Positions 24,225 through 64,000 of a stretch of 64,000 nucleotides of DNA are shown here, piece by piece. The stretch's first letter is position 1, and each line of letters starts with the position of its first letter. Both the position numbers and the translations under genes were made by a program. The stretch is taken from NCBI GenBank assembly GCA_963743165.1, contig CAVUOP010000009.1, positions 11,092-75,091 on the forward strand, read 5' to 3'. The DNA comes from an uncultured Solirubrobacterales bacterium. GTDB taxonomy: Bacteria > Actinomycetota > Thermoleophilia > Solirubrobacterales > Solirubrobacteraceae. Under the pieces are notes generated by a model. That model did no database searches and was not told the origin of the DNA. It saw nothing but the letters and a program-made list of their open reading frames with translations.

Positions 24225-24905
24225 ATGCCCAAGATCAAGCTGCTGGCAGGACTGGTTGCGCTTGCGACGGCCCTAGTCGTATCCGTAGCACCTGCAATGG
24301 CGGAATTTGAATCAACCACCGGTCAATCTCAAGGATCCATTAAGACCTTTCCCGCAACAGTCACTTTTGAATCCGTTGAAGGTGGACCGGCCGATTCATG
24401 TAAATCTACAAACTCTGAAGAAAAGGTCGTGGCCGAAGGCGGATGGCAGATACAAGTCAAAAGCACCACACAGCAAGGAAAATTTTTCTACCAAGCCCCC
24501 ACGCTCAAGGGACCACATGAGCAATTCAAAATTCTAAAATGGGGAGTCTGCACTGGCCCAACCGGCATTTCAGTCACAATATCATGCAACTTCCAATTCG
24601 AGAGCAACGGCACAAACCCGACAGGTACCTTCAGCATCTATCCCCCTGGGTGCGTACAAAAAATTGGCACCGGTACAAATACCTGCACTATCAATATACA
24701 GCCTGATGGCAACAAAGAACTACAAGGCGTGAAACTGACGAATGGTGTTGGCGGAGTCGCAATAGAAGCCGGAATCAAAGGGATCACCTCCACCATTCAA
24801 GAATCAAACACTCTATGCAAAACATTAGGCATCAAAGGGGGTCAAAAAACTGGTAAACTATTCACCAAAGGCGCGTATGAAACCGAAGGCCAAAAACTAG
24901 TCTAG
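24225..24905 (+). CDS. Secreted 6-Cys beta-rich protein, copy A (candidate filament subunit)
   Basis: AAGGAGG RBS; Sec signal ending PAMA|EFES; low GC (28/60 in a sampled line); paralog of 30382-31059. Confidence 0.8.
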   Translation: MPKIKLLAGLVALATALVVSVAPAMAEFESTTGQSQGSIKTFPATVTFESVEGGPADSCKSTNSEEKVVAEGGWQIQVKSTTQQGKFFYQAPTLKGPHEQFKILKWGVCTGPTGISVTISCNFQFESNGTNPTGTFSIYPPGCVQKIGTGTNTCTINIQPDGNKELQGVKLTNGVGGVAIEAGIKGITSTIQESNTLCKTLGIKGGQKTGKLFTKGAYETEGQKLV

Positions 24906-24911
24906 CCATAG

Positions 24912-24941
24912 CCGTGGGGTCGCCTGCGGGCGACCCCACGG
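24912..24941. terminator. Hairpin between convergent genes
   Basis: Perfect 13-bp stem CCGTGGGGTCGCC-tgcg-GGCGACCCCACGG. Confidence 0.7.
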
Positions 24942-24947
24942 GCTGGA

Positions 24948-27815
24948 CTAACGATGCCCGCGGGCCTTCGCGGCTCTTTGGCCGACTCGGCGGGCATTGC
25001 CGGCCTTGCGTGCCCTGGGACAGCCGCTGACGGCGATGTGGACGTTCGGTTCGAGCCTCGCACCGTTGGCGCCGGTGAGTTTCACGGGCAGCGCGAGCTT
25101 GGTGCCGCAGAAGTTGCCCTTGGCGCTGGCTGGCAGGTTAGTGCCGAGCGCCGAGTGCGAACCCTGAGGCAGGTTGAGCTCGAAGCTTGTGATCGGTGCG
25201 TCAGGCACCGCGTTGAAGGAGCTGGTGGTAATGCCCTTCTTGATGTTGGTATTGCCGACCAGATCCAGGCGCACTCCCTCCCCCTGGAGGACGACGACAA
25301 GATCCGGGAAACCCGCACCGCCGTGCGACACAAGATAGGCAGGCCCCTTGAGCGGCACGTTCAACACAGGACTGATCGCGGTGGCGATCCCCACCGCGGA
25401 CTCCGCGGGACAAGTCGCCGGGTTCTGCGCAAATGCGGCTTCGGTGCACGCTTTCTGCAGCGTCGTCAAGCGCGCGGGCAGCTGCTTGGGCAAGGTCACG
25501 AGCACCTTGCCGATGTTTGCCTGCCCCGCACCCGAGGTGACCTTGACATCAAGCGATGCACCGTTCTTCTTGCTCGTCTGCCCCCGGGTGGAGACCTTGA
25601 AGGCAGGCTTGAACGGCAATGCCGCACAGTTCACCGCCTGGAAGTGACTTGAGACGGTCGCGGCGGTCCCTGCGGTGGAGACGACCGTGCCGCTCGCCGA
25701 GAGCGGTTCGCAGTTGGTGGGGTTGAAGATGAACTGGTTGTGCGCCGACCCTCCCCCGTCGATGGTCACGGTCGCGGAGCGCACATCCAGCGGGATGCCC
25801 TTCAGAATCGTGGGCAGCGGATCGGTGATGACGGTGATCTGCGCTGTATGCGGATCGACGTAAATCCCGCCGCGCACCACCACCTGCCCAAGGTTGAACG
25901 GCCCAGCTTCCGCATGCACCACGATCGCCAGCCCGAACGGCCCGCCCTTGTAAGGGCCCGTCAGGTACACGGGATCTTCCTGCTTGCCCGCCTGCGGCAG
26001 GAACACCGGGTTGGACCCGGCACCGGCACTGGCCGTCACGTGCCCAATCTGGCTCGACGCGGGACAGGCACCGGCTTCAGCCAGCGCTTCGCCGCACTGT
26101 GAGACCTTTGAAAGCATCCCCAACACACCAGGCGGAATCTTCACGCTCACCCGCCCAAGCCGCTGATCTCTGTCGCCACGCGAAATGCTCGTCACAAACG
26201 GGCTGAATGCACCCGCCTGATTGTTTTCGGTGCCCGCCGCAAATGACGGCGCGAAACCGCCACCACAATTGCTGCCCAGCTTGAACGCCGGGATCGCAGG
26301 CGACACAGGCAACGTGCCGGACCAAGGCGACAACACAGCGTTGGCCTCATATTCACCGCACTCCGGCGTCATCAGCGCGGCGCGAGGACCGCCGTAGAAT
26401 TTCAACCTGAGATCGCTGAACGGCAACTGCGGCTCGCCTTCTAGCGCGGAGCCCAGGCCATAAACGCGGTTACCGTCGAATGTCGCCGACAGCTGCCCCG
26501 TCTGAGGGTCCAGGTGCACCTGACCGGCCAGCTTGGCGTGCACGCCGTCGCCTTCAGCCACGATGTAAATCGCCAGCAGGCTGTTGAAGGGATTGTTTTC
26601 CTGCTGCGCAAGATAGACCGAGCCTTCCAGCGGCTTTTCCAGCAGCGGCGTAGTGGCCACCACCGAGCCGACCTTCGAGGCATCCGGGCAGGTTGCTGCC
26701 GTCTGAGCGTTCAGGTCAATCTGCACAGGCGAGCAGGCTTCCCGCCCATCCGCCGCGGAGGGATTCAAGACCAGGCCGGGAGGAAGCGTGACGGTCGCGC
26801 TCTTCAGATGCGACTCGGCGAACCCAGCCGGGTTTTCGCTCTGAGGAACCCTCAAGTCGGCTTCCAGCCCCGTCGGCGCGTTGGCTTCCGTCGTGATAGG
26901 GGCGATCTTCAGCGAGGGGCTGAAGTCAAGGCGGTCGCAGCCGGTGATGTTTGTCGGGTTGCCGTGGGAGTCGAGGTTCGCGGATTCATCGCTCACGAAC
27001 GCACCCGGGTCCTGCCAAGGGTCAGCACGGATCGACATCACCGGTGGTTCTGCTGGGCAACTGGTGGGGAGGGTCAGGAAAGGGCGGGGATTGACCCCGG
27101 CGGAGCAGCCATTCGGGCGGCTGGGAACTTCCACTGGCAGACCTTCAGTGCCCAGACACTCTCCACGAATTCCATCGTGACTCGGGTCGGCAGGCACACC
27201 CCACAGAGTCACACGCACGCCGAAGACATGCAAAGTCTGGCTGATGTCGCGTGCATGAACCGTAAGGCCGTAGCTGCCGTCGTCACGGACAGATGCGGTC
27301 AGCAACACAGGCTCACCAATGTAGTTAAAGCCGAACTCAGCCGGAACCCCGGGGGGTGGGTTTAGATTGTACACACCAATGTATTCGAAGGCGCCTTCGG
27401 TCAACGTGACAGCGGCGACCCCCACCTGACTGTCATCGGGACACGTCGCACCAGAGAAATAGAAGTTGCTCCCCGGCGGAAGATTTTCCTTATTTCTCGG
27501 CGGAGTAGTGAACTGCTGAATCGAGCACTTCGGTGTAGCCGTTGGGTTGCCAACCAACCCCAAGGGCGTATCAACATCGGTATCCTTTATGTCACCTTCC
27601 GGAATCGGTTCTTCGCTGAGATTATGGGTCCCATTCAGATCAAAAGCAGTGGTCAGAGCCCATGGGTGGGAGCCTGCCTGTGTTGCTGCCGATCCATCCT
27701 GGTTGACCGCCGAATACGAGAAGTCCTTGAAGCCAAAGCTTCCGAATGCCGTGCCTGCAAGCAGGGCGAACCACAACAGTGTGCTCAGCGCGGTGCCAAC
27801 GTATTTGCGCATCAT
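24948..27815 (-). CDS. Large secreted Cys-rich four-repeat protein, cassette 1
   Basis: Signal peptide, QAGSHP motif, four CPxxSxxG repeats, basic tail; paralogs at 44341, 52944 and 62417. Confidence 0.85.
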   Translation of the reverse strand: MMRKYVGTALSTLLWFALLAGTAFGSFGFKDFSYSAVNQDGSAATQAGSHPWALTTAFDLNGTHNLSEEPIPEGDIKDTDVDTPLGLVGNPTATPKCSIQQFTTPPRNKENLPPGSNFYFSGATCPDDSQVGVAAVTLTEGAFEYIGVYNLNPPPGVPAEFGFNYIGEPVLLTASVRDDGSYGLTVHARDISQTLHVFGVRVTLWGVPADPSHDGIRGECLGTEGLPVEVPSRPNGCSAGVNPRPFLTLPTSCPAEPPVMSIRADPWQDPGAFVSDESANLDSHGNPTNITGCDRLDFSPSLKIAPITTEANAPTGLEADLRVPQSENPAGFAESHLKSATVTLPPGLVLNPSAADGREACSPVQIDLNAQTAATCPDASKVGSVVATTPLLEKPLEGSVYLAQQENNPFNSLLAIYIVAEGDGVHAKLAGQVHLDPQTGQLSATFDGNRVYGLGSALEGEPQLPFSDLRLKFYGGPRAALMTPECGEYEANAVLSPWSGTLPVSPAIPAFKLGSNCGGGFAPSFAAGTENNQAGAFSPFVTSISRGDRDQRLGRVSVKIPPGVLGMLSKVSQCGEALAEAGACPASSQIGHVTASAGAGSNPVFLPQAGKQEDPVYLTGPYKGGPFGLAIVVHAEAGPFNLGQVVVRGGIYVDPHTAQITVITDPLPTILKGIPLDVRSATVTIDGGGSAHNQFIFNPTNCEPLSASGTVVSTAGTAATVSSHFQAVNCAALPFKPAFKVSTRGQTSKKNGASLDVKVTSGAGQANIGKVLVTLPKQLPARLTTLQKACTEAAFAQNPATCPAESAVGIATAISPVLNVPLKGPAYLVSHGGAGFPDLVVVLQGEGVRLDLVGNTNIKKGITTSSFNAVPDAPITSFELNLPQGSHSALGTNLPASAKGNFCGTKLALPVKLTGANGARLEPNVHIAVSGCPRARKAGNARRVGQRAAKARGHR

Positions 27816-29971
27816 CGGTGTGCCCCCGTGTCCGCCGCGCGGACACGCCTGGTGTTCGCTTTCCGCTTCTTCTTCTTCCTTTTGCTGGCGCGTTTCTTGG
27901 CCTTCTTCGCGGGCTTCTTCTTGGCCTTGATCTTTGGCGTGGACGTAGAAGTAGGCGCAATGTTCCCCATACCGGCAAATGTCGCGCTGGCAAGCGAGCC
28001 AAGGGAAGATGGTGCTGAGGCCTGCGGCAAACAGGCTTCGCTTTCGCAGGCCGGGGAAGCAGCAGGCGGCGCGGCGAAGCCGCCCCCGACCCGGGCGTCG
28101 TAGAGATCGCCCAGCTGATCGATGTCCTGTGGCACCAACTCCGCACGAGTGACAAAGAATGCGTCGTCACCATTCGCGCTGGCGTCGACAAACGACGAAT
28201 CGCTGGTGCTGGTGGCGCCCGAAAGCAGGTTGATACAGCCAGCCTGCTGCTGACAACTGCCAGTACCATCTTGCTCCCACTCATATACGTCCTGAACCCC
28301 ATTGGTGTCCTGTGGCACAAGCCCGTCCTTGCTGTCGAAGAAGACCCTGGTGCTGTCTTCCGACAGCACCCTCGACTTATACGTACCCACTTCGGGTACA
28401 AGCCGCCATGGCGTGCCACCCGGGAAGCCCGACGGTCCCGTCGGCCGTGCCCCACTCGGATTACACGACACACACGTCACCTGATTCGCGTCAGCGTCGT
28501 AGAGATACACCTCCTCGTCCGGCAGTCCGGTATTGGCGTCACGATTGTCATAACCCGTCAAGCTCACCGCGGACATGAACAGCAGATGCTTGCCGTCAGC
28601 CGAAACCCTCGCGGTACGCAGACCAGCAGAGCTTTCCCAATCATGCGCAACCGTTGGTTCAAGATTGGCGCCGCCCTTGTTGTCGCGGGCAGTGAGTGCG
28701 TAGAGGAACCTGATCGACCCTTCGTGCCACATATACAAATTATCGTGCCCGACTATCGCGCCAGTACCAGGGAGGGCCCCTTCCGCCACAAAATACAGAT
28801 ATGCACCGTCGTCATTGGCTCCGAGCACCCCCAACACCGCGGCGCCATAGATATTGTTGCCATCTACCGTCAAATCGGTCAACTGGTGGGTCGTTACATC
28901 AAACATGTAGAGATCCTGATGGGAAAAAACATCATCCGCGGTCGAGTTGGGAGTCAATCTCAGTTCATCCGCGAAAAAGGCCCTCGATCCATCCACGCTG
29001 GCGGTCTCGAACTTGCCGCGCCCACTGGGGTCGACTCCTCCCTGCGACTTGTCCATCTGAGTCGAACCGGGAGGATTGACGCCGTCATTTTCATGCACAA
29101 ACAGAGATCTCGTCCCCGGCTGACTCCAAAACACCCGTGCACCATCATCTGAGATTGTGCGATCTTCGTTTTCTCTACTACCCAGTTCAGCGCCCCCACC
29201 GCTGGTTTCGTTGGGGTGGACAGCTCCAGGTGGAGTGTTAATGGATTCGAACTCCCCATTGGACCACTCATAGAGATTACCTTCACTCTGATTCGCCGCT
29301 TCAGGATTGAGCGCAGCCTTCGTTCCAAAGACGGGATGCTTGATATCAGGCGTGATCCCCAGCAGTTCAAGCCGAAATGCTTCGGCAGTTTCAGGTGGGG
29401 TGCTCGTCAAAAGCGCACTGAAATCGCCGGTCTGACTATCACGCAGATAGTAGTTCATATAATGAGGAGGCGCATCGGCGGTCAGCGGAGGATTTTCCAC
29501 TGGTCGCACAGATCCACCCAGCATCAGTCCCTGCGACAAATCTGATGAGAACGCCCGGTAGGGAGCCCCGTTGCCCGCCGCTGGATAGGTCTTTGAGTTC
29601 ATCGGTGTGGTGATGTTTTCTGTCGACCAATTTGCCCCTCGCGTCGAAAGGTACTGGCTTGCGAGCGGCGCGGCCAGCGGTTCCTTGCCATTGGAGCCAG
29701 GGAACGCAAGCAACGACAGATAGGTGATGGCATTTCCGTCCGTAGATGCCTGCACAACGCCACCTTCCGGCAGACCTTCGTTGGGAGTGGCCCCATCGAT
29801 GCCGTTGATCTCACCGCCGTGCTTGTCCATCGGTGAGACCATCTCCCAAGCACGGCCGTCGGGTAAAGGCAAGGATGCCAGAGCGGCACTGCTGGCTATC
29901 GACAGGACACAGCCAACTACACAACTGAACGCTGCGCCAAAGACGGCCATTTTGCGACCATAGGCAAGCAT
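27812..29971 (-). CDS. Secreted beta-propeller-like (TolB/WD40-type repeats) protein, cassette 1
   Basis: Signal peptide; PDGRAWEMVSP; repeated SxDGxxxFF and DVYEW motifs; Lys/Arg tail; ATGA-coupled to the next gene. Confidence 0.82.
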   Translation of the reverse strand: MLAYGRKMAVFGAAFSCVVGCVLSIASSAALASLPLPDGRAWEMVSPMDKHGGEINGIDGATPNEGLPEGGVVQASTDGNAITYLSLLAFPGSNGKEPLAAPLASQYLSTRGANWSTENITTPMNSKTYPAAGNGAPYRAFSSDLSQGLMLGGSVRPVENPPLTADAPPHYMNYYLRDSQTGDFSALLTSTPPETAEAFRLELLGITPDIKHPVFGTKAALNPEAANQSEGNLYEWSNGEFESINTPPGAVHPNETSGGGAELGSRENEDRTISDDGARVFWSQPGTRSLFVHENDGVNPPGSTQMDKSQGGVDPSGRGKFETASVDGSRAFFADELRLTPNSTADDVFSHQDLYMFDVTTHQLTDLTVDGNNIYGAAVLGVLGANDDGAYLYFVAEGALPGTGAIVGHDNLYMWHEGSIRFLYALTARDNKGGANLEPTVAHDWESSAGLRTARVSADGKHLLFMSAVSLTGYDNRDANTGLPDEEVYLYDADANQVTCVSCNPSGARPTGPSGFPGGTPWRLVPEVGTYKSRVLSEDSTRVFFDSKDGLVPQDTNGVQDVYEWEQDGTGSCQQQAGCINLLSGATSTSDSSFVDASANGDDAFFVTRAELVPQDIDQLGDLYDARVGGGFAAPPAASPACESEACLPQASAPSSLGSLASATFAGMGNIAPTSTSTPKIKAKKKPAKKAKKRASKRKKKKRKANTRRVRAADTGAHR

Positions 29972-30101
29972 CTACAGATCCCCTCCTCCTCATTGCTCGC
30001 CGCAGATTGCAGGCTGAGTCGTGGATCACTCTAGCCGAGACCCGATATCAGGCCCTGATCTGTTTCTGACTGATTTGTACCTGGAAAACTACGTAAGAGA
30101 G

Positions 30102-30145
30102 CGTATTTTATACCTAAACGAGCGATCCACTAGGTAGAAAATACG
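30102..30145. promoter_or_regulatory. 15-bp inverted repeat in the divergent promoter region
   Basis: CGTATTTTATACCTA-14 nt-TAGGTAGAAAATACG (14/15 match). Confidence 0.55.
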
Positions 30146-30381
30146 GCCTACGTCTCCAGATTTTAGTCGGAAACAAAATGCCTTCTCGCGCGGCATCAGG
30201 GATCTTCCGAAGCCGATCTCTACGGAACCCAATAGGACAGGGGGCTCATGCAAGCCTCAGCCAGGCACGCGACGGTTCCCGCAGAATTGCTCGTTTTGCC
30301 GAAGACCCGTCCGAAGCCCATGATCGAGGCGAGCCTCATTGGGGGCTCAGACACAATCTAACGACAGGAGACGTACATACA

Positions 30382-31059
30382 ATGTTCAAGATCAAGCTGT
30401 TGGTGGGACTTGCCAGCGTGATGGCAACCTTTGTTGCCTTGGCGGTCCCAGCCATGGCAGAATTTGAATCTGCCAACGCCAAATCACAAGGTGTAATCAA
30501 GACATTTCCTGCAGAAACCACCTTCGAAAGTGTCGAAGGTGGAGTGGGAGTCAAATGTAAATCGACCAACGCAGAAGAAAAAGTAGTAGCCGAAGGCGGC
30601 TGGCAGATCCAAGTCAAAGGCACTACCACGCAAGGAAAACTCTTCTACCAAGAACCCACGACCAAGGGACCACACGAGCAACTCAAAATAAAATGGGGCA
30701 TCTGCACAGGGCCAACCGGCGTAGCGGCTACGGTCGAATGCAACCTCCAAGTCGAGAGCAATGGGACCAATTCTAGCGCGACCGGAAGCCCATACTTTCC
30801 TGGTTGCAACGTTAAAGTCGGCACCGGTACAAACACCTGCACTATCATCGTACAGCCCGACGGCAACAAAGAACTACAAGGTACAACAGTAACTAATGGG
30901 GTTAACGGTGTTAAGATCGAAGCCAACACTCCGCACGTTTCATCGGTTACCCAGGAAACGCTGAGTCTATGCAAAACACTAGGCATCAAAGGAGGCCAAA
31001 GAACAGGTAAATACTTCACCAAAGGCGTTCTCGAAACCGAAGGCCAAAAACTAGTCTAG
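30382..31059 (+). CDS. Secreted 6-Cys beta-rich protein, copy B (candidate filament subunit)
   Basis: AGGAG RBS; signal peptide ending PAMA|EFES; same six Cys and ETEGQKLV end as 24225-24905. Confidence 0.8.
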   Translation: MFKIKLLVGLASVMATFVALAVPAMAEFESANAKSQGVIKTFPAETTFESVEGGVGVKCKSTNAEEKVVAEGGWQIQVKGTTTQGKLFYQEPTTKGPHEQLKIKWGICTGPTGVAATVECNLQVESNGTNSSATGSPYFPGCNVKVGTGTNTCTIIVQPDGNKELQGTTVTNGVNGVKIEANTPHVSSVTQETLSLCKTLGIKGGQRTGKYFTKGVLETEGQKLV

Positions 31060-31067
31060 CCCAACAA

Positions 31068-31094
31068 AACGGGGCCGCCCAAGGCGGCCCCGTT
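31068..31094. terminator. Hairpin terminator between convergent genes
   Basis: AACGGGGCCGCC-caa-GGCGGCCCCGTT with a T-tract on the minus strand. Confidence 0.7.
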
Positions 31095-31137
31095 GCCCTC
31101 AAACTTAGCACAGGCCCCAATCAAGGCCCACCCCAAA

Positions 31138-47300: not shown

Positions 47301-47553
47301 CCGGCAGCTTGTCGGTGACCGTCACCGGCGTCACGGAGCCGTTCGCCGGGGCATCTCCGACGTTCTCCACCGCCAGCAAGATCTTGGCTTCCCCGCCCGG
47401 CGGTATATACGTGGGGGTCGCGGTGGACTGCACCGTCCAGCCCGCGCCAGGTACCGCGAGCGCCGGCGTCGCACCGGCCAGCACACCCAGCACCACGGCC
47501 GCCAGCAGCACGCCCAGCGCCCGTCCGAGGCCCGCCTTGTAAGTGCTCCTCAT
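44341..47553 (-). CDS. Large secreted Cys-rich four-repeat protein with extra N-terminal DUF11/Ig-like domain, cassette 2
   Basis: Signal peptide; VENVGD..VTVTDKLPAGL; RAGSHP; four repeats; Lys-rich tail. Confidence 0.85.
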   Translation of the reverse strand: MRSTYKAGLGRALGVLLAAVVLGVLAGATPALAVPGAGWTVQSTATPTYIPPGGEAKILLAVENVGDAPANGSVTPVTVTDKLPAGLEVTAMSGGAGFFGLHGGMTCDLAEVSCTWAGEQLPSYEAIEVTISVKAAPGAVSGESEVAVSGGGVPGLSVRRPLTLSAAPVPFGVESYGLTAEEEGGLSDTRAGSHPFQLTSSFALNQTADPSKQPALVRDLGFQLPAGLMGTPLAVPQCTAAQFQPQGGFTDQCPANSALGVAAVVVFVPGLGPVPLRLTVPVFNLVPGVNEPVRFGLVAAGVPVTLDASLRTGGDYGVTIRVSNASELGVVSVARVTLWGVPGDKRHDASRGWGCSFLGGESGEACPAPGASGTHPLLTLPTSCTGPLQSSVAISSWPTRANPQGLATEPFASEPVAGLEGCEGLPFSPELTVAPDTQTGGTPTGLSADVHIPQLETPEGLAEGNLKQAVVSLPTGVVIDPAGANGLGACSPQQIGLSDADPVSCPESAKVGTVEAVSPSIKAPLTGSVYVAQQGNNPFGSLLALYLALEGEGVLVKVAGEVHLDPATGQITTTFDNIPQQAVSDIKLHFFGGAHGPLATPVGCGTYTTTSQLTPYNTLVAAEPTSAFQISSGPNGSGCAPQSFAPAFTAGTVNNQAGGFSPFNVSFSRSDQEQDLAGVTVKTPPGLLGMLKSVQQCGEPQAAQGTCGAGSLIGHATAVAGAGPDPVGVGGQVFLTGPYKGAPFGLSIVVPAAVGSFNLGNVVVRAAIGVDPHTAQITVTSDPLPTILQGIPLQVRTVNVTIDREGFMFNPTDCEPLTVGGTLSSTQGASAGVSSHFQAANCAALAFKPKFTVSTQAGTSKKNGASLDVKVGYPTGAEANIHSVAVTLPKQLPSRLSTIQQACPEATFNANPASCPAGSNIGAVTALTPVLAGPLTGPAYLVSHGGAAFPDLVVILQGEGVTLDLVGSIDIKHGITSSTFASVPDAPISSFELKLPEGPHSGLTAVLPAKAKGSLCGTSLVMPTTLTGQNGAVVKQNTKIAVTGCPKANTQRAHRKKSKAKKHRKAKKRK

Positions 47554-47567
47554 CCTCACCACCCCTT

Positions 47568-49922: not shown

Positions 49923-50055
49923 CAAACCCATCCCCTCCCGGAGTCATCGAGAACACGACCACCCAGGAGATCCGGGCAGCACAAAACCACCCTGCGCACA
50001 AAGCCCAGGGCGGCAAAGAGACGGCGGGGCCTAGAAGCTAGCCAGCCCGGCCAAG
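49919..50055 (-). repeat. Conserved cassette leader, copy 1
   Basis: 137 bp, 8 mismatches and no gaps versus 59887-60023. Confidence 0.9.
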
Positions 50056-50100
50056 AGAGAGAGAGAGAGAGAGAGATGCGTCAGTGATGCTGACGCATCT
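50055..50100. repeat. (GA)11 microsatellite abutting a perfect 11-bp inverted repeat
   Basis: GA x11 at 50055-50076; AGATGCGTCAG-tgatg-CTGACGCATCT at 50074-50100. Confidence 0.85.
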
Positions 50101-50165
50101 AGTTACAACCCCAGACGGAGCCGTAAGACCATTAGCCGCGCCACGCGCGGTGCAAACAAGATCAC

Positions 50166-50351
50166 TCATCTCAAATCCCTCGTGAAGCGATCAAATCCCT
50201 CTCCAACACTTCCCTGCGGTCCCATGGAACCCGCAACAGCGGGAGGACCCAAAACCCGACCTATCAATGCCAGACACATGCCTGACATGAACAAGCCTAT
50301 ACCAACTCCAGCCCAAAAGTCAACCCCAAAAAGAACGGCCGTGTAAAGCAA
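50166..50351 (-). CDS. Possible small membrane protein or fragment
   Basis: 61-aa hydrophobic ORF in a lower-GC patch; no family recognised. Confidence 0.3.
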   Translation of the reverse strand: MLYTAVLFGVDFWAGVGIGLFMSGMCLALIGRVLGPPAVAGSMGPQGSVGEGFDRFTRDLR

Positions 50352-51925: not shown

Positions 51926-52933
51926 CTACGCGTCCGTCTGTGCCTTGATGGCCTGCTTGACTTCCTCCCCGCGTGGGGTGAGCGTCCAGACATTGGGTTC
52001 GCCCTTGGCGTGCCCCTGCCCGGTGTTGCGGATCAACCCAAGACTTTCCAGACGCCGCAAGAGCTTCGAAATCTGCCCCTGATCCTCCACCCCCGCGGTC
52101 GCGGCGATCGCACGATTGGACGCCCCAGGCTGCGAGCCAACCGCAACAAGCACCCGCACGGTGCGATAGGTGAGGCGCATCTCAAGACCCCTGAGCGGAT
52201 CGGAGTGCTCGCGCCTGGCAGCACGAGTGAGCTTCGGCGCGGGCCGCTCGATCTCCTTACGCGCGGCAGCCGGCCCCAGGTACGGGCCGAGTATCAGCCC
52301 CATGAGCGGCCCAAGCAGATCGGTCAACGGCGCGGGGTCACGAACCGAGAGCCGGGCATGCACCAACGCAAACGCACCACCAAGCACCCCCTCGGCCGTG
52401 AGCGGCGGCGGCGGGGCCTTAGCCAGAACCCGCCCCTCATCCACAACTTCCACGAGCCGCGCCAGCAGTTCCGCGCGGTGCGCCAATACCCTTGACCCGC
52501 TCCCAAGCGCCTCCACCACGAGCAGCGTGCCCATGTCCGGCTCGTCATCCAGGAACAGCAGCAGCGCCGCGATCGCCGCCCGCAGCCGCGCCTGCCAGCT
52601 GCGCTCAACCAAATACGCCGGCAGCACCCGCCGCCCCGCCCGCTCCACCGCCTCCGCGAACGCGGCAGCGAGGCAGTCTTCGCGGTCGGAGAACATTTCA
52701 TAGAACGTGCGGCGCGAGACGCCCGAGCGCGCCACCACATGCGCGACCGTCGCGTTCGCAGCCCCGCGCTCCCCCGCGACTTCAGCCATCGCGGTGATCA
52801 TCCGCGCACGCTGGATCTCCGAGACCTTCTCGCGCCCAACGCTCGATATCTCACCACCGCGCTTGTCACGAACCTTCCCAGGACGCGCCTTCTTGTGCGT
52901 CCCGGCTGGACTCTCACGAGAGGACACTGGCAT
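51926..52933 (-). CDS. TetR + winged-HTH regulator, cassette 3
   Basis: Close paralog of 43333-44331. Confidence 0.85.
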   Translation of the reverse strand: MPVSSRESPAGTHKKARPGKVRDKRGGEISSVGREKVSEIQRARMITAMAEVAGERGAANATVAHVVARSGVSRRTFYEMFSDREDCLAAAFAEAVERAGRRVLPAYLVERSWQARLRAAIAALLLFLDDEPDMGTLLVVEALGSGSRVLAHRAELLARLVEVVDEGRVLAKAPPPPLTAEGVLGGAFALVHARLSVRDPAPLTDLLGPLMGLILGPYLGPAAARKEIERPAPKLTRAARREHSDPLRGLEMRLTYRTVRVLVAVGSQPGASNRAIAATAGVEDQGQISKLLRRLESLGLIRNTGQGHAKGEPNVWTLTPRGEEVKQAIKAQTDA

Positions 52934-52943
52934 TCCCTTTTAC

Positions 52944-55900
52944 CTACCTCCTCTTGCCGTGCTTGGGCCGCTTCTTCGCCTTGGCCTTCTTCGCCTTGGC
53001 GCAACCGGTGACGGCGATCTTGGTGTTCTGCTTGATGACGGCTCCGTTCTGCCCGGTGAGCGTGGGGGCATCGTGAGGCTGGTGCCGCACAGGCTCCCCT
53101 TCGCCTTCGCCGACAGGACCGCGGTGAGCCCGGAATGCGGCCCCTCGGGCAGCTTCAGCTCAAACGAGCTGATCGGGGCGTCGGGGACGCTTGCGAACGT
53201 CGAGCTGGTGACGCTCTTTTTGATGTTGATGCTGCCGATGAGTTCGAGCGTGACGCCTTCGCCCTGCAGGATCACGACGATGTTCGGGAACGCCGCGCCA
53301 CCGTGCGAGACGAGATACGCCGGGCCAACGACCGCGCTGGAGAGAACAGGCGTCCTGGCCGTGGCGGTCCCGATCACCGACCCCGCCGGGCACGACGCTG
53401 GGTTCGCGTCGAACGCCGCTTCCGGGCAGGCCTGCTGGATCGTGGAAAGCCGCGAAGGCAACGCCTTGGGCAACGTCACAGCAACGCTGTGAATGTTCGC
53501 CTGCGATCCCGTGGGGTAGCTGAGCTTCACATCCAGGCTCGCACCGTTCTTCTTGCTCGTCCCCGCCTGGGTGGAGACGGTGAACTTCGGCTTGAAGCCA
53601 AGGTTCGCGCAGTTCGCCGCCTGGAAGTGGCTTGAGACCTGGACGCTCGTGCCCTGCGTGCTCGTGACCGTCCCGCCCACGCTGAGCGGTTCGCAGCTGG
53701 TCGGGTTGAACATGAACCCCGAACGGTCGATCGTCACGTTCACCGTACGCACATCCAACGGAATGCCCTGCAGAATCGTCGGCAACGGATCGCTCACGAC
53801 GCTGATCTGAGCGGTATGCGGGTCCACGTTGATCGCCGCGCGCACAACGACGTTACCGAGATTGAATGGCCCCGCAACCGCCGGCACGACAAACGACAGC
53901 CCGAACGGGGCACCCTTGTAAGGGCCGGTGAGGAACACCTGTCCACCCTGCACGTAGAACGGGTCCGGTCCCACACCAGCAGCAACCGTCGCGTGCCCGA
54001 GCAGGCTCCCCGCACTACAGGCGCCCTGCGAGGCTTGCGGTTCGGGGCACTGCACCACACCCTTGAGGATCCCCAACAGCCCAGGTGGGGTCCTGACCGT
54101 GACCCCCGCCAGGTTCTGATCCTGATCAGAGCGAGAGAACGTCACGGTGAACGGGCTGAAAGCACCCGCCTGGTTGTTGGTGGTGCCCGCGGTGAACGAC
54201 GGGCTGAACCCACCCCCGCAGCCGCTGTCAATCTGGAAGCTGTCCGACGCCCTCACCGGGGGACCCGAATCAGGGGCAGACCACGGCGTCAACGAGGAGG
54301 TCGTTGTGTAGGTACCACATGCCGCGGGAGTGACCAACGGCGCGCGGGGACCTCCGAAGAAGTGCAGCTTCAGATCGCCGACGGGGAACTGCGGCGTTTC
54401 GTCAAACGTCGCCGTCAGCTGGCCCGTCACGGGGTCGGAGTCGAGCCGACCAGGAACCTTGATGAGCACCCCAGTCGTGGGGTCGTCGATCACGAGGTAG
54501 ACAGCCAGCAGTGTGTGGAACGGGTTTTCATTCTGCGCGGCGAGATACTCCGAGCCCTGCAGCACACCCGCCAACGCCGGCGTGCTCGCTTCCACGCTGC
54601 CGATCTTCGACGCATCCGGACAGGTCGGCTGCTCGTTGCTGCCCAGCGCAATCTGCGCCAGCGAGCACGCCGCGAGACCATCCGCCGCGGAGGGGTTCAC
54701 CGCCAGGCCCGCCGGCAGCGTCACGGCGGCCTTCTTCAACGGCGGCGTCGACAGTGCGGCGGGGTCCTCGTTCTGCGGGACCTTCAGCTCGACGTTGACA
54801 CCCGACGGGGTGTCGGCCTGGGTGGTTTCCGGCTGCGCGCTGAGCGAGGCATTGAAGCGCAGCAGATCGCAACCCGTCACTGGCGGGGATTCCGAGGTGC
54901 TGGACACCCAACTGGGGTCACTCAGATCGGGGGAGCCGTCCGCGTTGAACCGGCCCGGACTCTGCCAGGAATCCATGTGAATGGCCGTCGTCGGCGCTCC
55001 ACTTGAGCAGTCGGAAGGATTCGTGAACTGCGCGACCGGCGTGCTCCCATTGGCGTCTCGTTCAGATGGGTTCCCGTACAGGTTCACCACGATGTTGGTC
55101 AGTTCGATCTGCGGTACGTCGGGGCTCGTGGCCCGCAGCACGTAGCCCGCCAGGGTCGGCACGACGCTCACATACAACACATGAGTACCGTGGATCAGAT
55201 CGACATACCCAAACTCCGCGGCGACGCCGTGCTCGGGCGCAATGTTCCATAGCGGACTGTCCACCCCGGTGACCTCTGCTGGTTCGGTCAGGATGTGTCC
55301 AACCTTGGTATCGGACGGACAGTGTTCGCTGGAGGTGAGTTGGGCCAGGGTGCACGTTGGCGCAGCGAGCGCGCTGCCGGCAAACCCCAACGGCAGATCC
55401 ACAACCACATCCTTCAGTTCGCGGATGCTGGTGTCGCCAGTGGCTTCAACGGTGGTGGACTGGAAAACATTGTTGAGGTTGATCGTTTGAGTGAGTTCGT
55501 AGGGGTGATCGCCAGCCTGTGTATCCTCGTCGCCGTCCAGCCCTGCGATCAGCGAGGTAAACCCGCTGAATCCGAAAGACGGCGATATTCCGCCGTTCGC
55601 GTTCTGTGCGCTTCCCGAAGCGCCCGCCAAACCACCACAGGAGACGTTAGCCGTGTTGGTGAGCGTGGCTGCGGCGCCCGGTTCGACGGTCACGTAGAGG
55701 AACATCCTCAACCTGTCGCCTGGCTGCACTTGGAACGGCAATTCACAACGAGGCGCCACCGGGGGTGTCGAGCACAATCCAAACGGCGCCAAGTTGGTGC
55801 CCGTCGGCAACCCTACCCGTACATCACCAGACCAAAAGAATCTGATGCCTTGCAATGTCACACCTGGCGGCAGCGCGTCCGCAAGCGTGACAGTGCTGCC

Positions 55901-56137
55901 TTCCGCGGTCGGTTGACTTCCTGTGTTCGTCACAGTCACCCGATATGCGTCACATGTGGGAAAAGCATCGCCGGCCGTGCGTTCGCAGAGGCCGTTGTCG
56001 CCCACCGAGAACTCGGTGGGAGTCGCGAACGAATCGATCGACCAGTGTACCGACGGCATCGCGGCCGAGGACGAGCCGGCCAACGCTCCAAGCGACGCAA
56101 GCAGCATTGCGAGGGAATACACATATCTCCTGACCAT
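52944..56137 (-). CDS. Large secreted four-repeat protein, cassette 3 (apparent -1 frameshift near 53066)
   Basis: QAGDHP and four repeats; restoring one base gives the paralog-like end TLTGQNGAVIKQNTKIAVTGCAKAKK...KRR* (stop 52944-52946). Confidence 0.82.
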
Positions 56138-56140
56138 GAT

Positions 56141-59100
56141 CTACCTCCGCCCCTGCTTGACGTGCTTACCGGTCCGCACACCCCTGTGACTCTTTTTTTT
56201 CTTACGCTTCGCTCTCTTTCCAGACTTTGCTCTCTTCTTGGGTCCGGTCTTCCTTTTCGCGCTCACCGCGGGCGTCGTCGGCGTCGCGAGGTTCCCCGCG
56301 CCGCTGAACACCGCGCTCCCCGGCGCGCTGAATACCGGGGCCGTACCTGGTGTGCCGTGGCACGCTTCACCCTGACACCCGGATGCTGAGTGCGACGGGG
56401 CCACGATACACGGGTCGGCCGCCGTACAGATCCTTGCGTCGTAGTAGTCCACGCCCGAATCGGTGTCCTGGGGCACCAGTCGGTCGGCGGTCGTGAAGAA
56501 CACATTTGCACCTGTCGCATCGACGCCGACCAGATTCACAGCCGAGAAGCCACCGCCCCCAGAACTTTCAGCGAAGGAGCCGCTGAAGAACTGCGAGGTG
56601 TCCTTACCATCGGAGATCAGATACACCTGACCTTCGTGCCACTCATACACATTGCCCGCATAAATAGGTTCCCCTTCCGGGCCGGCTCCGAGCCGCACAT
56701 CGTTGAGGGCTCCCGGAGCCAGGGCGACGGGACTCTGGAAGAACACAAACGACCCATCATGCGACATCGTCGGATCCGAGCGTGCCGGATTAGCACCACG
56801 AAAGCCATGCTGCGCTGGCACGATGCTCGCGTTCCCACGCCAGCGTTCCCGTTGTCGTTGAAGCCATGCTCACCCGTCGAGATACGCACAAGCATCGCTG
56901 TCTGCGCGTCATAGCGAAACACCTGCTCCGCTCCTGTATTACTGGTTTCGTCCGCTGTCAGCCGTCCGTGGCTCGTGAACACCAAGAATCGCCCATCAGG
57001 GGTGACATTCGCCAGATGAAAGGATCCGTTCCAATTTCCCGAATCGGATGCGGGCAGCGCCGCGATGAACGCCACGCGACCTTCCGGATGGCTCGCGTCA
57101 CGCTCGAACACGTACAGATTCTCCGCCCCACGTCGTGCAACCTGGCCTCGACCATTCGCCACGCCGGTGAGGACACCTTTGGCGACGAAGTAAACATGCG
57201 ACCCATCCTGGGAAGTCGCAACCACGCCTTGCACCCGTGGCCCATCCCCACTCGAATCGCCCGCCGAAGCGTCGATCAGGTTATGCCCAGACGGGTTTGA
57301 GAAATCGTACTCATATAGGTTGCAGCCATTTACGGCAATCGTTTCAAGGCATCCCGATGCGTGTTGTGCGCTGTCGCCGCTGTGGCTGTCCTCGTTCGCA
57401 CTGTCGGTCAGCTGCTGGGTATCGGTGAAGAACACCTTCGACCCGTTCCCCGAAGCGCCCTCGAAATGCGCATCGCCGGGAGAAGATGCCAGACAAGCAG
57501 CGCTCGTGCAATCCAGCGGGGAGCGCCCCGAAACGAGGACCGTCCGCGACCCGTCGATACGGGCATACAGCTCGTCCGCAGGAACCGCAATACTCGCATT
57601 GACACCTGAACCCGCAGCGCACTTGTCCGCAGTGAAATACACAATGTCGCCATCGGCAGACACAAGGCCGCTAGGACTCCCGGGGAGGCCCCCCGCTCCA
57701 AGTTCTGTCCCGCAGACACTGATCAGGTCGGTGCTGCCCGAGCCGCCACTCACGCCAACCAGAGCGGGCTGAGGATTACCGGCACCCACATACTCATATA
57801 CACTGTCTTCTTCACCTGCGGTCGCATCAAAAGGCCAACGGCCTCCCCTGTGACCTTCGTATACGATGTGAGAAAAGTCAGCCGTTCCACGCACCCCGTC
57901 GATAGAAGACACAAAATCGTTTGAGCCAAGTGGCCCGGACGACGGCGGGCTCGATGGACCGACATCAACAAATGACCCATCCGGCCGACGCACATAAAAA
58001 TCGTCCTCCCCAGCAGGTGGCGTGGCGATGCTGAACACCGCACTACCCGTATCCGCGTTGACAATTTTTTGAGTGTTCTGGCCGAACTGCGTTGCTGGGG
58101 GCGCCATGGCAGTCGTCACCCACCCTCCGCTCCCACGCGTAAACGCATACGGCTCACCCTCGCTGTTACCCCTTTCAGAGGTACACGAGCCGGCGCTTGC
58201 GAAGCACTGAATACTTACGCCGACCAGACGCGAACCGTTTTCTGCGACAGCAGGAGGAGCGCCAAGGGCCAAGTTGCCCACCGCAGCGCCGTTCTTTTGC
58301 GGCGGCGTGACCATTTCATACGCACGGTTATCCGGCAGCCCACCACCCGTGGTGTCGTATACGAATGTGTGATCGCTGCCGGTGGTGGTGCCGTTGCTGT
58401 CGTGCGCGATGACACGCCAGTGGTATGTCGTGTTCGCCTGCAGGCCCGCAACGTGCTGCGATACCGCGACATCGCCTGTGCCAGCGCCAATGTCCGCATC
58501 GGGCACCGGCACGCTCGCGCCGTACGCCGTGCTCAGGCCGTACTCGAAGTGGTAAGTGGCGTCCAGGCCCTTGGGGTCGATCGCGGCGGTCAGGTCCACC
58601 GAGCCGGCCGTCAGGTTCGCCGTGGACGCGCTGTCGATCACCGGCACGGGCATCGTGGTGAACGTCCTGTCAGCGCTATGGACAGAGCCATTCGCGTTGC
58701 TCGCCACGATCCGGTAGTGGTAGGTCGTACCGCCCTCCAGTTCGCCGACGGTCGTGGAGGCTGCTACCTGGCTCGACCCGGACCCCGCATCCGCGGGCAA
58801 CGCCGGGGCCGTCTGGCCGTAGCTCGTGGTAGTCCCGTATTCAAACTGGTAGGTCGTCTCGCTGCCCTCGGGGTTGACCAGCGCGTTGACCGTCGCGGTC
58901 GTCGTCTGAACATTCGTCGCTGCTTCCGGCACGACACGAGAACCCGGAGTCGGACCGAAGACATACACCTTTCCATCCGCGGCATTGGCTACAAAGACAT
59001 CGCCCGTGAGGGGGTCTACGGCGATACCGCCAGAGCCGCCGCTGGCGAGCTGCGCCGAGCCGAACTGCGGCAGCTGATTCTGGGCGGAGTCGTACTCGGC

Positions 59101-59890
59101 GACATAGGACATGTCATCGACGTAGAGATCGTCGGTTGAGAGGTCCGTCGCAGCGGCGGTCTGACAAAATCCACAATTGTCGACGAGCCCGAGTTCATGT
59201 CCGGCGCTGTCGAACTTTGCCACGCCGAAACCGCGCGTCGGGTAACTGTTGCCGTTCGAGTCGACCGAACCCAGGTACATCACCGGCGGCGGTGTTGAAC
59301 TGGAAGATCTGACTCCCCGACGGATCGAACTCGATGACGTTCGAGCTTGAGTCATAGACCCACACATCTCCCGAACCGTCCACACCGACCCCCGCCAAGC
59401 CGGAGAACGAACCGCCGACTTCGCCCAGATAAGCCCCCGCGGAGCTGAACTTGTCGACCGCGTCATGTCCGGCGTCGACCACATACAGGTCCCCCGCCGA
59501 GGGGTCGCCCGGGCTCGTCGAGTTATCCACCGCGAGCGCCGCCGGTTCAGCGAACGAGAACGAACCCGCCGCCGTCGCGCTGCCCACCACGCCAGCGCAC
59601 TCACTCGCCGAAGGCACCGCACTGCCCGTGATCTGACACGCATACTGATATTCACCGGAGCCGTTGAGCTTGAACTCGTCGACCACGTTGTTCGCCACGT
59701 CCGCGACAAACACGTCGCCCGCGCGATCGACCGCGACGCCACCCGCCTTCCCAAACGAACCCGCGGGCGTCCCGCTCCCGTCGAAACTCGCAAGGAACGG
59801 ATGCGAGACTTCCGCGAACGCGGACCCGGTGATTGACACAAACAGCACCGCCACCAACCCAGCGAGTACCACCACAAACCGACGAGTCAT
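56141..59890 (-). CDS. Secreted NHL-repeat + 2 FN3-like + beta-propeller protein, cassette 3 (two apparent frameshifts)
   Basis: Joined from three ORF pieces with breaks near 59266 and 56835: GVAVD NHL repeats, FEYGxxTxYG repeats, LPDNRAYEMVTP propeller start, Lys/Arg tail. Confidence 0.78.
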
Positions 59891-60023
59891 CAAACCCATC
59901 CCCTCCCGGAGCAATAAAGAACACGACCACCCAGGAGATCCGGGCAGCACAAAACCACCCTGCGCATAAAGCTCAGGGCGGCAAAGAGACGGCGGGGCCT
60001 AGAAGCTAGCCGACCCGGCCAAG
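59887..60023 (-). repeat. Conserved cassette leader, copy 2
   Basis: 94% identical to 49919-50055. Confidence 0.9.
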
Positions 60024-60944: not shown

Positions 60945-60952
60945 GCCGTCGC

Positions 60953-61378: not shown

Positions 61379-61408
61379 TGGACCCAGTGTAAAGAGCGCG
61401 TCAGACCG

Positions 61409-62407
61409 CTACCCGGTCTGTGCCTTGATGGCCTGCTCGACTTCCTGCCCGCGCGGGGTGAGGGTCCAGACGTTCGGTTCGCCCTTTGAGTGCCCTTGCC
61501 CGGTGTTGTGGATCAAGCCGAGGCTTTCAAGGCGCCGCAAGAGCTTTGAGATCTGCCCCTGGTCCTCGACCCCCGCGGCCTGCGCGATCGCGCGGTTAGA
61601 CGCGCCGGGCTTGGCGCCGACCGCCACGAGGACACGGACCGTGCGGTAGGTGAGACGCATATCGAGCCCCCTGAGGGGATCTTGGTGCTCACGCCGCGTG
61701 GCGCGGTTGAACAGCGGGGCAGGCCTGTCGAGCTCCCGCCGCGCCGCGGCCGGCCCGAGGTAGGGCCCCACGATCAAGCCCATCAGCGAGCCGAGCAATC
61801 CCGTCAACGGCGCGGTGTCGCGCTGGGAGAGACGCGCGTGCACCAGCGCGAACGCGCCGCCGAGGACCCCCTCGGCCGTGAGCGGCGGCGGCGGCGTCTT
61901 TGCCAACGCCCGCCCCTCATCCACGACGTCGACCAGCCGGTGAACGACCTCAGAACGGTGCGCCAGCACCCGCGGTCCGCCGCCCAGGGCCTCGACTATG
62001 AGCAGCCGCCCCATGTCCGGTTCGTCCTCCAAGAACAGCAAGAGCGCCGCGATCCCCGCCCGCAGCCGATCCTGCCACCCGCGCTCTGACTCATAAGCGT
62101 CGAGCATCTGCCGCGACGCGCGCTCTACCGCCTCGCTGAATGCCGCCGCGAGGCAGTCTTCGCGGTCGCGGAACATATCGTAGAACGTGCGCCGGGACAC
62201 CCCCGAGCGAGCCACCACGTGTGCCACCGTCGCGTTGGCCGCCCCCCGCTCCCCGGCGACTTCGGCCATCGCCACGATCATCCGCGCGCGCTGGATCTCC
62301 GAGACTTTCTCGCGCCCAACGCCGGAGGTCTCACCACCCCTGCTGCCACGCCCAGCACCGGGACGCGCGCGCTTACGCGCCCCAGCACCACGAGAGGACA
62401 CCGTCAC
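61409..62407 (-). CDS. TetR + winged-HTH regulator, cassette 4
   Basis: Close paralog of the other two copies. Confidence 0.85.
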   Translation of the reverse strand: MTVSSRGAGARKRARPGAGRGSRGGETSGVGREKVSEIQRARMIVAMAEVAGERGAANATVAHVVARSGVSRRTFYDMFRDREDCLAAAFSEAVERASRQMLDAYESERGWQDRLRAGIAALLLFLEDEPDMGRLLIVEALGGGPRVLAHRSEVVHRLVDVVDEGRALAKTPPPPLTAEGVLGGAFALVHARLSQRDTAPLTGLLGSLMGLIVGPYLGPAAARRELDRPAPLFNRATRREHQDPLRGLDMRLTYRTVRVLVAVGAKPGASNRAIAQAAGVEDQGQISKLLRRLESLGLIHNTGQGHSKGEPNVWTLTPRGQEVEQAIKAQTG

Positions 62408-62416
62408 GCCTCCCGC

Positions 62417-64000
62417 CTACCCCTTCTTACCGTGCTTCGGTTTCTTGGCGTGCTTAGGCTTCTTCTTCTTCGCCTTCGTGCACCCTGTCACAGCGATCTT
62501 CGTTGACTGCTTGATCCGCGCCCCGTTCTGACCCGTGATCGTGGTGGGCATCACGAGGCTTGTGCCACACAGGTTGTTCATGCCCTCACGGGTACCCTTC
62601 GCCTTCGCCGCGATGTTCGCCGCCAGCGCGGAGTGCGGCCCCTCGGGCAGGCTCAGCTCGAACGAGTCAATCGGCGCGTCGGGCACCGCGTTGAACGCGC
62701 TGCTCGTGACCCCGTGCTTGATGTCGATGCTCCCCACGAGTTCGAGCTTGACGCCTTCGCCCTGCAGGACGATCACCAGGTCGGGGAACGCCGCCCCACC
62801 GTGAGACACCAGATACGCCGGACCCGACACCGGGCTCGTCAGCACCGGCGTACGGGCGATGACGGTCCCGATGTTCGACCCTGCCGGGCACGACGCGGGG
62901 TTCTGGTTGAATACGGCCGCGGTACACGCCTGCTGGATCGTCGTCAACCGCGACGGCAACTGCTTGGGCAGTGTGACGGCGACCTTGCCGATGTTCGCCT
63001 GCCCGAACCCAGAGGTGACCTTCACATCCAGGGAGGCCCCGTTCTTCTTGCTCGTCCTCGCTTGGGTTGACACCTTGAACGACGGTTTGAACGGCAACCG
63101 TGCGCAGTTCGTGACCTGGAACGGCACCGTGTCGTCCACGCTCCCACCCTGCGTGCCGGTGAGGGTTCCAGTCGCGTTCAAGGCGTCACAGTTGGTGGGG
63201 TTGAACATGAACCCCTGCCGGTCGATCGTGACGTTGATGTGCTTGACCTGTAGGGATATGCCCTGGAGGATCGTCGGGAACGGGTCGCTCGTCACCGTGA
63301 TCCGCGCGGTATGCGGATCGACATCGATCCGGGCGCGCACCACCACACAGTCACACGCCCCTGAGCCGAGGTCGAACGGGCCAGCCTTCGCCGGGACCGC
63401 TATCGAGAGGCCAAATGGCGCGCCATGGTAGGGCCCAGTGATGAATACCTGGCCACCAGTCACCGTATACGGGTCACTCCCGACACCCGCACTGACCGTG
63501 AGATGCCCCAGCAGGCTTTCCTGGCCACACGTCCCCTGGCTTGCCTGTGGTTCGGGGCACTGCTTCACCGACGAGAGCCTCCCCAACAACCCCTGGGGTA
63601 TGTGCAGCTGCAAACCGCTCAACGTCTGTTCGTTGTCCTGGCGGCCCATCGTCACCGTGAACGGCGTGAACCCACCCGCCTGGATATTCGTACTACCCGC
63701 CGTGAGTGACGCCGCGAACGGCAACCCACCCGGGCACGCACTGCCACCGAGGCCACTGCTGACCTGGAAGCCAGAGCTCGTGTTCACCGGGGCGTTTTCA
63801 GACCACGGCGAGAACACCGCGTCCGTCGTATACGTCCCACACATCGCGGGGGTCGAGAAGGGTGCCCGTGATCCGCCGAAGAAGTGCAGCTGGATGTCTT
63901 CGATCGGGTCCTGCGGCGCGTTCTTGAACGTGCTCGTCAAACGCCCAGTCACAGGGTCGAGAGCGATTTCCCCGGCGAGCTTCGCACGGACACCAGACAC
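62417..64000 (-). CDS. Large secreted four-repeat protein, cassette 4 (5' part outside window)
   Basis: Repeats 2 (partial), 3 and 4 plus a Lys-rich tail. Confidence 0.85.
   Translation of the reverse strand: MSGVRAKLAGEIALDPVTGRLTSTFKNAPQDPIEDIQLHFFGGSRAPFSTPAMCGTYTTDAVFSPWSENAPVNTSSGFQVSSGLGGSACPGGLPFAASLTAGSTNIQAGGFTPFTVTMGRQDNEQTLSGLQLHIPQGLLGRLSSVKQCPEPQASQGTCGQESLLGHLTVSAGVGSDPYTVTGGQVFITGPYHGAPFGLSIAVPAKAGPFDLGSGACDCVVVRARIDVDPHTARITVTSDPFPTILQGISLQVKHINVTIDRQGFMFNPTNCDALNATGTLTGTQGGSVDDTVPFQVTNCARLPFKPSFKVSTQARTSKKNGASLDVKVTSGFGQANIGKVAVTLPKQLPSRLTTIQQACTAAVFNQNPASCPAGSNIGTVIARTPVLTSPVSGPAYLVSHGGAAFPDLVIVLQGEGVKLELVGSIDIKHGVTSSAFNAVPDAPIDSFELSLPEGPHSALAANIAAKAKGTREGMNNLCGTSLVMPTTITGQNGARIKQSTKIAVTGCTKAKKKKPKHAKKPKHGKKG

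Follow-up and report, generated by a model that had tools for sequence, protein, structure and literature searches.

We analysed a 64,000-nucleotide stretch of DNA (the window) from an uncultured Solirubrobacterales bacterium, corresponding to positions 11092-75091 of contig C9 in its 2.44 Mb assembly (G000). On its minus strand the window carries cassettes in which a beta-propeller gene is followed by a gene for a four-repeat rod protein of ~950-1100 amino acids and then by a gene for a TetR-winged helix-turn-helix (TetR-wHTH) regulator, which cassette 1 lacks. Upstream of 15 of the 25 propeller-rod pairs in the genome, cassette 2 included, we found a leader in which a short open reading frame (ORF) runs through an inverted repeat and a CT repeat. 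With moderate confidence, we read this CT leader as a heritable, default-off phase-variation switch of the 15 operons, which would act by repeat slippage and translational coupling. The switch likely lets cells vary their surface coat. The leader had been missed by a previous interpretation made without database searches (the sequence-only reading), which proposed a surface fibre or adhesin system.

Cassette 2 shows the arrangement in the window. The leader ORF (49920..50169, minus strand, as for all features of this cassette) begins with a Shine-Dalgarno (SD) sequence and an ATG at 50169. Within it, a perfect 11-bp inverted repeat with a 5-nt loop (50074..50100) lies directly 5' of a (CT)11 tract (50054..50075), after which TAG stops follow in two frames. 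As assembled, with a repeat number (n) of 11, the leader encodes 43 amino acids and its stop ends at 50038, 115 nt short of the propeller ATG at 49922, which is the off state; at an n of 10, 13 or 16 the leader stop would instead overlap that ATG. The propeller gene (47568..49922) has a PD40 match, and hairpin pairing is predicted for its ribosome-binding site. It is followed by the rod gene (44341..47571), encoding an additional N-terminal DUF11-like domain, and by the regulator gene (43333..44331), with TetR_N and MarR_2 matches. Promoter-like TTGACT and TATAGG boxes (50294..50323) were assigned from positional conservation only, and a promoter and terminator scan called nothing at the window's leader, these boxes included. 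A TTGAC at a distance of 190-330 nt upstream of the tract is present in 101 of 108 elements, as against 35 of 111 control spans. A search of window positions 49850-50450 in Rfam 15 returned no match at E<=5.

Among the paralogues of the source genome the upstream leader is 70-95% identical. This genome contains 19 (CT)>=5 tracts, and the 17 with n>=10 all directly follow the same hairpin. Sixteen of these long tracts precede a propeller or TetR gene as the first gene, and the 17th is continuous in frame with a truncated NHL gene, a propeller-family remnant. A pattern scan of GTDB gave at least 114 loci; among the matches listed, 80 were titled, all 80 belonged to Solirubrobacterales, and 78 had a cassette gene downstream. 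The exact leader pattern is present in 5 of 31 relatives and variants of it in at least two more, and the element was not found in viral contigs.

The reading frames link the repeat to the downstream genes. Each of 145 elements has one upstream frame that stays open longest, for at least 27 codons, and this frame is fixed relative to the 5' arm of the stem whether the loop has 4, 5 or 7 nt. Past the tract, stops close two of the frames within 1-19 codons. The remaining frame runs up to an SD-preceded start of a long ORF and ends there in 118 of the 136 elements that could be used (nine were too long or ran off the locus), compared with none of 272 closed-frame stops. Conserved co-location of stop and start codons is regarded as a sign of translational coupling in the part of the literature consulted here (PMC3711429). 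The coupled start is harder to open than control starts (12.7 versus 8.6 kcal/mol, p=4e-8, n=118 versus 143). We propose that replication slippage would change n and that, at one length in three, the ribosome would reach and unfold the occluded start. Overlapping stop and start codons would then carry translation through the operon; at most propeller-rod junctions of the source genome, the stop of the first gene overlaps or almost touches the start of the second. At the other lengths, early termination would leave the operon untranslated and probably open to Rho, which is present in five of five genomes. MutS was not found in any of five genomes, which would favour uncorrected slippage.

The repeat lengths are consistent with a default-off state. 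Of 203 non-redundant elements 170 are coupled, and as assembled 13 of these are on and 157 off; by genome, the counts are 14 off and 2 on in G000, 25 off in G002, and 8 off and 1 on in G009. Genomic n ranges from 10 to 22. The ratio of n=12 to n=11 is 4:93 where 12 would be on and 20:31 where 12 would be off (p=1e-7), and in presumed short-read assemblies the corresponding ratios are 1:14 and 8:9 (p=0.018). This frame-dependent bias suggests that a length of 12 is disfavoured where it would switch the operon on, but the p values are not exact and are overstated because the Fisher tests compare related lineages and not independent samples.

The same operons appear to be marked by a second type of switch, a predicted invertible promoter. 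In the sister lineages G005, G078, G098 and G131, a promoter segment of 330-560 bp between inverted repeats takes the place of the CT repeat. In G005 the promoter and the first tetR codons are inverted between repeats with a cassette-specific core, one breakpoint lying within the code for the tetR helix-turn-helix (HTH). When we flipped the segment in silico at eight tetR starts of G005 (L151 and L152 not included), TTGACA was turned toward the cassette in 8/8 cases and a long TetR N terminus was restored in 7/8. Among 30 loci with the promoter pattern, 18, drawn from four genomes, lie antisense to a truncated tetR, and inverted repeats of 14-25 bp are present at 17 of these; nine others face an intact tetR without such repeats, and three are unrelated. 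Each predicted inverton (L145-L152, L165-L194) combines conserved arms with a core of its own, in the manner of natural orthogonal recombination sites; the layout of arms and core resembles that of tyrosine-recombinase sites. By eye, the cassette 2 leader peptide (window 50169-50100, minus strand) is similar to the beginning of the TetR HTH region, and a similarity to the inverted tetR N terminus of G005 is seen in some leaders. These likenesses suggest that the leader ORF may derive from a tetR 5' end. The promoter segment between inverted repeats is also a feature of promoter and intragenic invertons (Chanin et al., PMC10028968). Unlike those, as far as the consulted portion of that article describes them, the segment found here has a breakpoint inside the tetR HTH code and its own core in each cassette, and was seen only in the off orientation.

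Several observations weigh against a heritable switch. Some genomes show remarkably little variation in repeat number; in G002, 23 of 25 tracts have n=11. Of 16 pairs of near-identical leaders, only 2 have different n. Single n values in the source genome, including its two on calls, may be errors, since this assembly is indel-prone (11 apparent frameshifts per 124 kb of control genes). Lengths were compared across contigs of relatives rather than among reads from one population, a single assembly supplies 21 of the 26 metagenome loci, and the overstated significance of the Fisher tests belongs here as well. Among sequencing runs, covered as contigs only, at most 12% of the words matched, and the two RNA-library contigs that overlap the leader do not by themselves demonstrate transcription or slippage. 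As to the inversion, a pattern tailored to G005 did not find the inverted (on) junction in five genomes, and no invertase was identified, the neighbouring integrases looking like ordinary island integrases. Export and surface location of the propeller and the rod are predictions only. Finally, slippage leaves the conserved hairpin unexplained.

The hairpin and the constant lengths would be accounted for if slippage were programmed at the RNA level. The genome would then stay at ~11 units, and the nascent hairpin would shift RNA polymerase or the ribosome by one CT unit, placing a fixed fraction of the transcripts of every cassette in the coupled frame without a heritable on or off state. In G002 and G009 almost all tracts have n=11. 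The stem extends as far as the tract in 144 of 145 elements, with a median of -16 to -17 kcal/mol, and carries compensatory changes. A precedent comes from Roseiflexus IS630, in which a 5'-adjacent nascent stem-loop stimulates polymerase slippage, according to the part of the report consulted (PMC5009743). The CT leader shares this 5'-adjacent stem-loop with realignment of the IS630 type, but not the fixed motif with one defined shift: reaching the on state takes +1 unit in 96 off elements and -1 unit in 36. In the lineage with a 5-nt loop, n=11 and n=12 would require shifts in opposite directions, yet both occur often. The spread of genomic n given above, and the predicted control of the same operons by all-or-none DNA inversion in sister lineages, also argue against an RNA-level event. 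We consider such an event unlikely and retain heritable slippage in the DNA as the probable mechanism.

Alternatively, control could be mainly transcriptional and the frame pattern secondary, with the palindrome serving as an operator for TetR-wHTH or the hairpin and CU tract as a terminator or attenuator. TetR accompanies 17 of the 25 pairs, the palindrome is nearly identical across the source genome and the remaining leader is structured (z -3.95), all of which would suit such a role. Yet the recognition-helix motifs of TetR do not differ between stem and loop types (the regular expressions used presuppose those motifs), and the arm spacing varies by 3 bp, even inside one genome. A canonical terminator between the tract and the start was found in only 33 of 136 elements, non-canonical and Rho-dependent termination being outside this test. 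An operator would explain neither the 118 coupled stops in 136 elements nor the frame-dependent length bias, and we regard transcriptional control of this kind as very improbable. Covariation of the palindrome with TetR helices was looked for and not seen. The TetR-wHTH protein itself may act in feedback or cross-repression.

With slippage and coupling as the preferred mechanism, the CT leader is best read as a variant of the leader-peptide phase variation of Streptococcus gallolyticus pil1 and pil3. Within the part of the account consulted (Danne et al. 2014, PMC3894217), pil1 likewise has a leader ORF, preceded by an SD sequence, that contains a simple repeat and lies upstream of an operon for a surface structure; the repeat number sets the leader stop, and the low state is that of the majority. 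The pil1 repeat described there is (GCAGA)n, followed by an intrinsic terminator, and two of three frames are on. Here, by contrast, (CT)~11 follows a conserved hairpin, one frame in three is on, and its end falls on the next start codon. The intrinsic terminator downstream of the pil1 repeat is lacking in the window and occurs in the 33 elements mentioned above. Whereas there are two pil1-type copies, up to 25 copies per genome occur here, with non-sortase cargo. Helicobacter pylori has CT-repeat adhesins. The multigene surface families opa of Neisseria (~11 loci, CTCTT repeats) and vlhA of Mycoplasma gallisepticum (up to 70 genes, trinucleotide repeat), to the extent that the consulted part of PMC4534519 covers them, also have one repeat switch per intact copy and few copies expressed together. 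In those host-associated pathogens the repeats belong to single genes and are located either within the sequence coding for the signal peptide or 5' of the promoter, whereas here a separate leader ORF gates an operon of 2-4 genes with its own regulator in soil bacteria.

To judge what is being switched, we modelled the cassette 1 proteins with AlphaFold2. The rod protein (24948..27815, minus strand) has a signal peptide, four beta-sandwich repeats and a basic tail. Its core folds into four repeats of ~220 amino acids each (predicted local distance difference test score, pLDDT, 90.9), with 11 strands per repeat in our reading of the DSSP output and the full pattern in all four domains. The best Foldseek matches are the tandem Ig-like adhesins PrgB (E 9e-12) and antigen I/II, in keeping with the adhesin-like character previously proposed. 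By domain, the rod matches YcnI (VIA Z 9.6, root-mean-square deviation 2.6 over 118 residues) and Ace (Z 8.6), and its domains resemble pilin and MSCRAMM domains (Z 6.5-8.6). These matches of predicted models indicate a shared fold, neither family nor function. The propeller (27812..29971, minus strand), also examined with Foldseek, is predicted with a pLDDT of 87.7 and has nine blades by strand count and a C-terminal segment that is conserved yet unfolded; its stop overlaps the rod start. Two DxD/N loops are present in 111 of 120 propeller homologues. The pair would thus resemble PrgB, the antigen I/II C-domains, Ace/Cna N2 and YcnI in having a rod of beta-sandwich domains, and the integrin alpha ectodomain in pairing an Ig-like rod with a propeller that has two such loops. 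Whole-chain TM-scores are ~0.15, and unlike in Ig-like adhesins and integrin, the ~220-residue repeats have disulfide-rich inserts, an LPxTG anchor is lacking and two separate genes are used. The rod sequence matches no PDB chain, and Pfam and NCBIfam contain no family for the rod core, the small proteins described below or propeller 1.

Both proteins are likely exported to the cell surface, as predicted from their sequences. An N-terminal hydrophobic stretch occurs in 106/120 and 103/120 homologues of the two proteins, and basic tails in 76/120 and 119/120. None of 120 rod and 120 propeller homologues has a transmembrane-like stretch, and an LPxTG-like match in the last 60 residues was found in four of the 120 large (rod) proteins and none of the propellers. 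Each of five genomes has one sortase, which in the source genome is not adjacent to a cassette. The combination of LPxTG, transmembrane segment and linked sortase seen in sortase-assembled pili and LPxTG adhesins is thus lacking, and so are the family domains of chaperone-usher, TasA-TapA, csc/WxL and SLH systems: usher, TasA, WxL, SLH and pilin families gave no Pfam or NCBIfam match at E<=0.05. The sequence-only reading had described the products as secreted, free of sortase signals, unlinked to a sortase and without a matching named system, and these descriptions hold.

Among 24 pairs of the source genome, the identity of rod domains 1-4 is 31, 46, 57 and 70%, respectively, and that of the propellers 32%. 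The two genes co-diverge (Mantel r 0.42, p 0.0005), and natural propeller-rod fusions, joined by a linker without signal peptide, occur in 3 of 150 representatives. We infer a 1:1 wall-attached pair with a conserved base and a variable outer end. Rod and propeller would be exported by Sec and held on the wall by their basic tails, and since they would present the variable outer end, the population would sample different surface variants. More tentatively, and rather doubtfully, the family may form a complete antigenic-variation system in a free-living soil lineage, in which each cell shows one coat, chosen from 20-30 integrin-alpha-like split-receptor operons (a calcium-loop propeller with an Ig rod), each held off. 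In that picture the switch would have evolved twice at the same leader, as a hairpin-tuned (CT)11 frameshift or as an inversion with a cassette-specific core, and the TetR-wHTH of the on cassette would lock itself in and silence the others.

Relatives of the rod lengthen by extra repeats within one chain, up to 7161 residues; P0270-P0275 and P0278 are such giants, with many tandem repeats (3400-7161 residues) of a type without a Pfam family. Two apparent long propeller-rod fusions in the source genome were rejected, one retaining a signal-peptide-like junction and the other being an NHL-FN3 extension. A C-terminal basic helical motif with two Cys (LxxALxxC...CxxxA) occurs in propellers, some rods and unrelated secreted proteins (13 ORFs), including C9:19386-20126, C9:102334-103371 and the ends of many propellers; it is a candidate lineage-specific wall-binding tail.

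The source genome has 28 rod loci, 25 of which have a propeller gene directly upstream, a synteny far beyond chance that extends the conserved neighbourhood previously proposed, with overlapping and co-diverging pairs. All ORFs of the four cassettes described in the sequence-only reading were recovered, including a cassette 1 without TetR, and these cassettes account for four of the 25 pairs. The gene order, which had been called fixed, is so for cassettes 2-4 of the window but not genome-wide, where TetR-wHTH comes after the pair in 13 cases, before it in 4 and is absent in 8. Together, the family ORFs occupy ~170 kb, about 7% of the assembly. Of 31 genomes from the genus and order (the source genome included), 27 contain the rod family, with 4-35 matches each, and it was found in none of 50 genomes from other orders of the class; among representatives at 50% identity it comprises 8092 clusters at E<=1e-10. 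The open-access literature contained no description of this protein family or its switch in Solirubrobacterales. The family is thus undescribed, and the switch-controlled repertoire is its notable feature. Two rod genes without propeller partner (C6:225892-228945 and C8:46367-49342) have a different C-terminal domain. At C8:122456-122713 a promoter-proximal leader fragment adjoins the last 85 codons of a rod gene and tetR, probably through internal deletion of a cassette.

The fibre proposal was that small secreted subunits polymerise without sortase, the rod serving as base or chaperone and the propeller as tip. The two small six-Cys paralogs assigned to cassette 1 are both real and 69% identical, but they lie on the plus strand, one on each side of the cassette, and are not part of the operon. 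The first (24225..24905; 226 residues) belongs to no known family and is tied to the cassette-1 subfamily; the second (30382..31059) is divergent from the propeller gene. A homologue is placed alike beside the pair at C1:501124, which groups with cassette 1 in the propeller tree, and close relatives of the small proteins appear to share contigs with cassette-1-type genes; ESM Atlas matches were Actinomycetota clusters only. In inversion-type cassettes, genes for a different small secreted Cys protein (17 such ORFs at the 14 scanned loci) separate tetR from the propeller gene, so that the proposed trio holds in those lineages. It is not general, as homologues of the small genes adjoin only 2 of the 25 pairs of the source genome, and most of its cassettes are without any small gene. 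Among 91 CT-type cassettes, a small secreted gene precedes that of the propeller in only 10, where it is collagen-like (L005, L008, L014, L028, L046, L051, L052, L057, L077 and L080). The cassette-1 and inversion-type families show no detectable relation beyond their signal peptides, and a PDB sequence search gave nothing significant for the latter. We take the small gene to be optional, because few cassettes carry one and these come from families not detectably related. The resemblance of the rod domains to pilin and MSCRAMM domains would favour a fibre, but Z values under 8 may mean merely a common fold, each rod domain looks complete with its 11 strands, and the searches for usher, pilin and TasA families were negative. 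A fibre is therefore, in our view, an unlikely product of these cassettes.

Cassette 1 has no CT leader upstream, and G+C content across it (window 24001-32000) is 56-61%, versus 64-69% in most of the window; its subfamily has neither the CT switch nor TetR. Cassette 3, on the minus strand, comprises an NHL-FN3-propeller gene (56141..59890) split over three ORFs as assembled, a rod gene (52940..56137) with a late frameshift near the C terminus and a regulator gene (51926..52933; TetR_N and MarR_2). Its leader remnant (59891..60022) retains only the post-tract part, with promoter, leader start, hairpin and CT tract all missing. In public contigs of relatives the alkA end runs on into a full promoter and the cassette 3 remnant into an AG/CT tract. 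Because of this continuation, the source genome has probably lost about 290 bp upstream of cassette 3, which is likely silent. The split propeller and the rod frameshift may be assembly errors, since control genes are broken at the rate given above; cassette frameshifts as proof of decay were rejected for similar breakage of control genes. Cassette 4, also on the minus strand, shows its regulator gene (61409..62407; TetR_N and MarR_2) and the 3' half of its rod gene (62417..64000), the remainder lying beyond the window. Its propeller gene, which the sequence-only reading could not see, lies just outside at C9:76849-80781, and with a (CT)11 switch in the off state it spans C9:76849-80998. Among the window cassettes, paralogue identity is 48-65% for the rods and 82-84% for TetR. 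On the plus strand, an HTH_3 gene and a DUF6036 nucleotidyltransferase gene (50425-51238), possibly a toxin-antitoxin-like pair, lie between cassettes 2 and 3, a ribbon-helix-helix antitoxin and PemK/MazF toxin pair is found at 51332-51896, and a secreted protein that combines a D-glucuronyl C5-epimerase domain, a Pro/Thr linker and an Ig-like end is encoded at 32456-33985.

Most known examples of large surface-gene families with a phase switch for each gene come from pathogens that evade immunity. Here one such family appears in abundant, uncultured soil Actinomycetota, at ~7% of a genome, which points to bet-hedging driven by phages, predators or substrates. The CT leader would give a regulatory logic to a very large unannotated protein family, and the sequence would predict which paralogue is on. 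The family would also offer two independently evolved switches on one leader, with possible natural orthogonal recombination sites.

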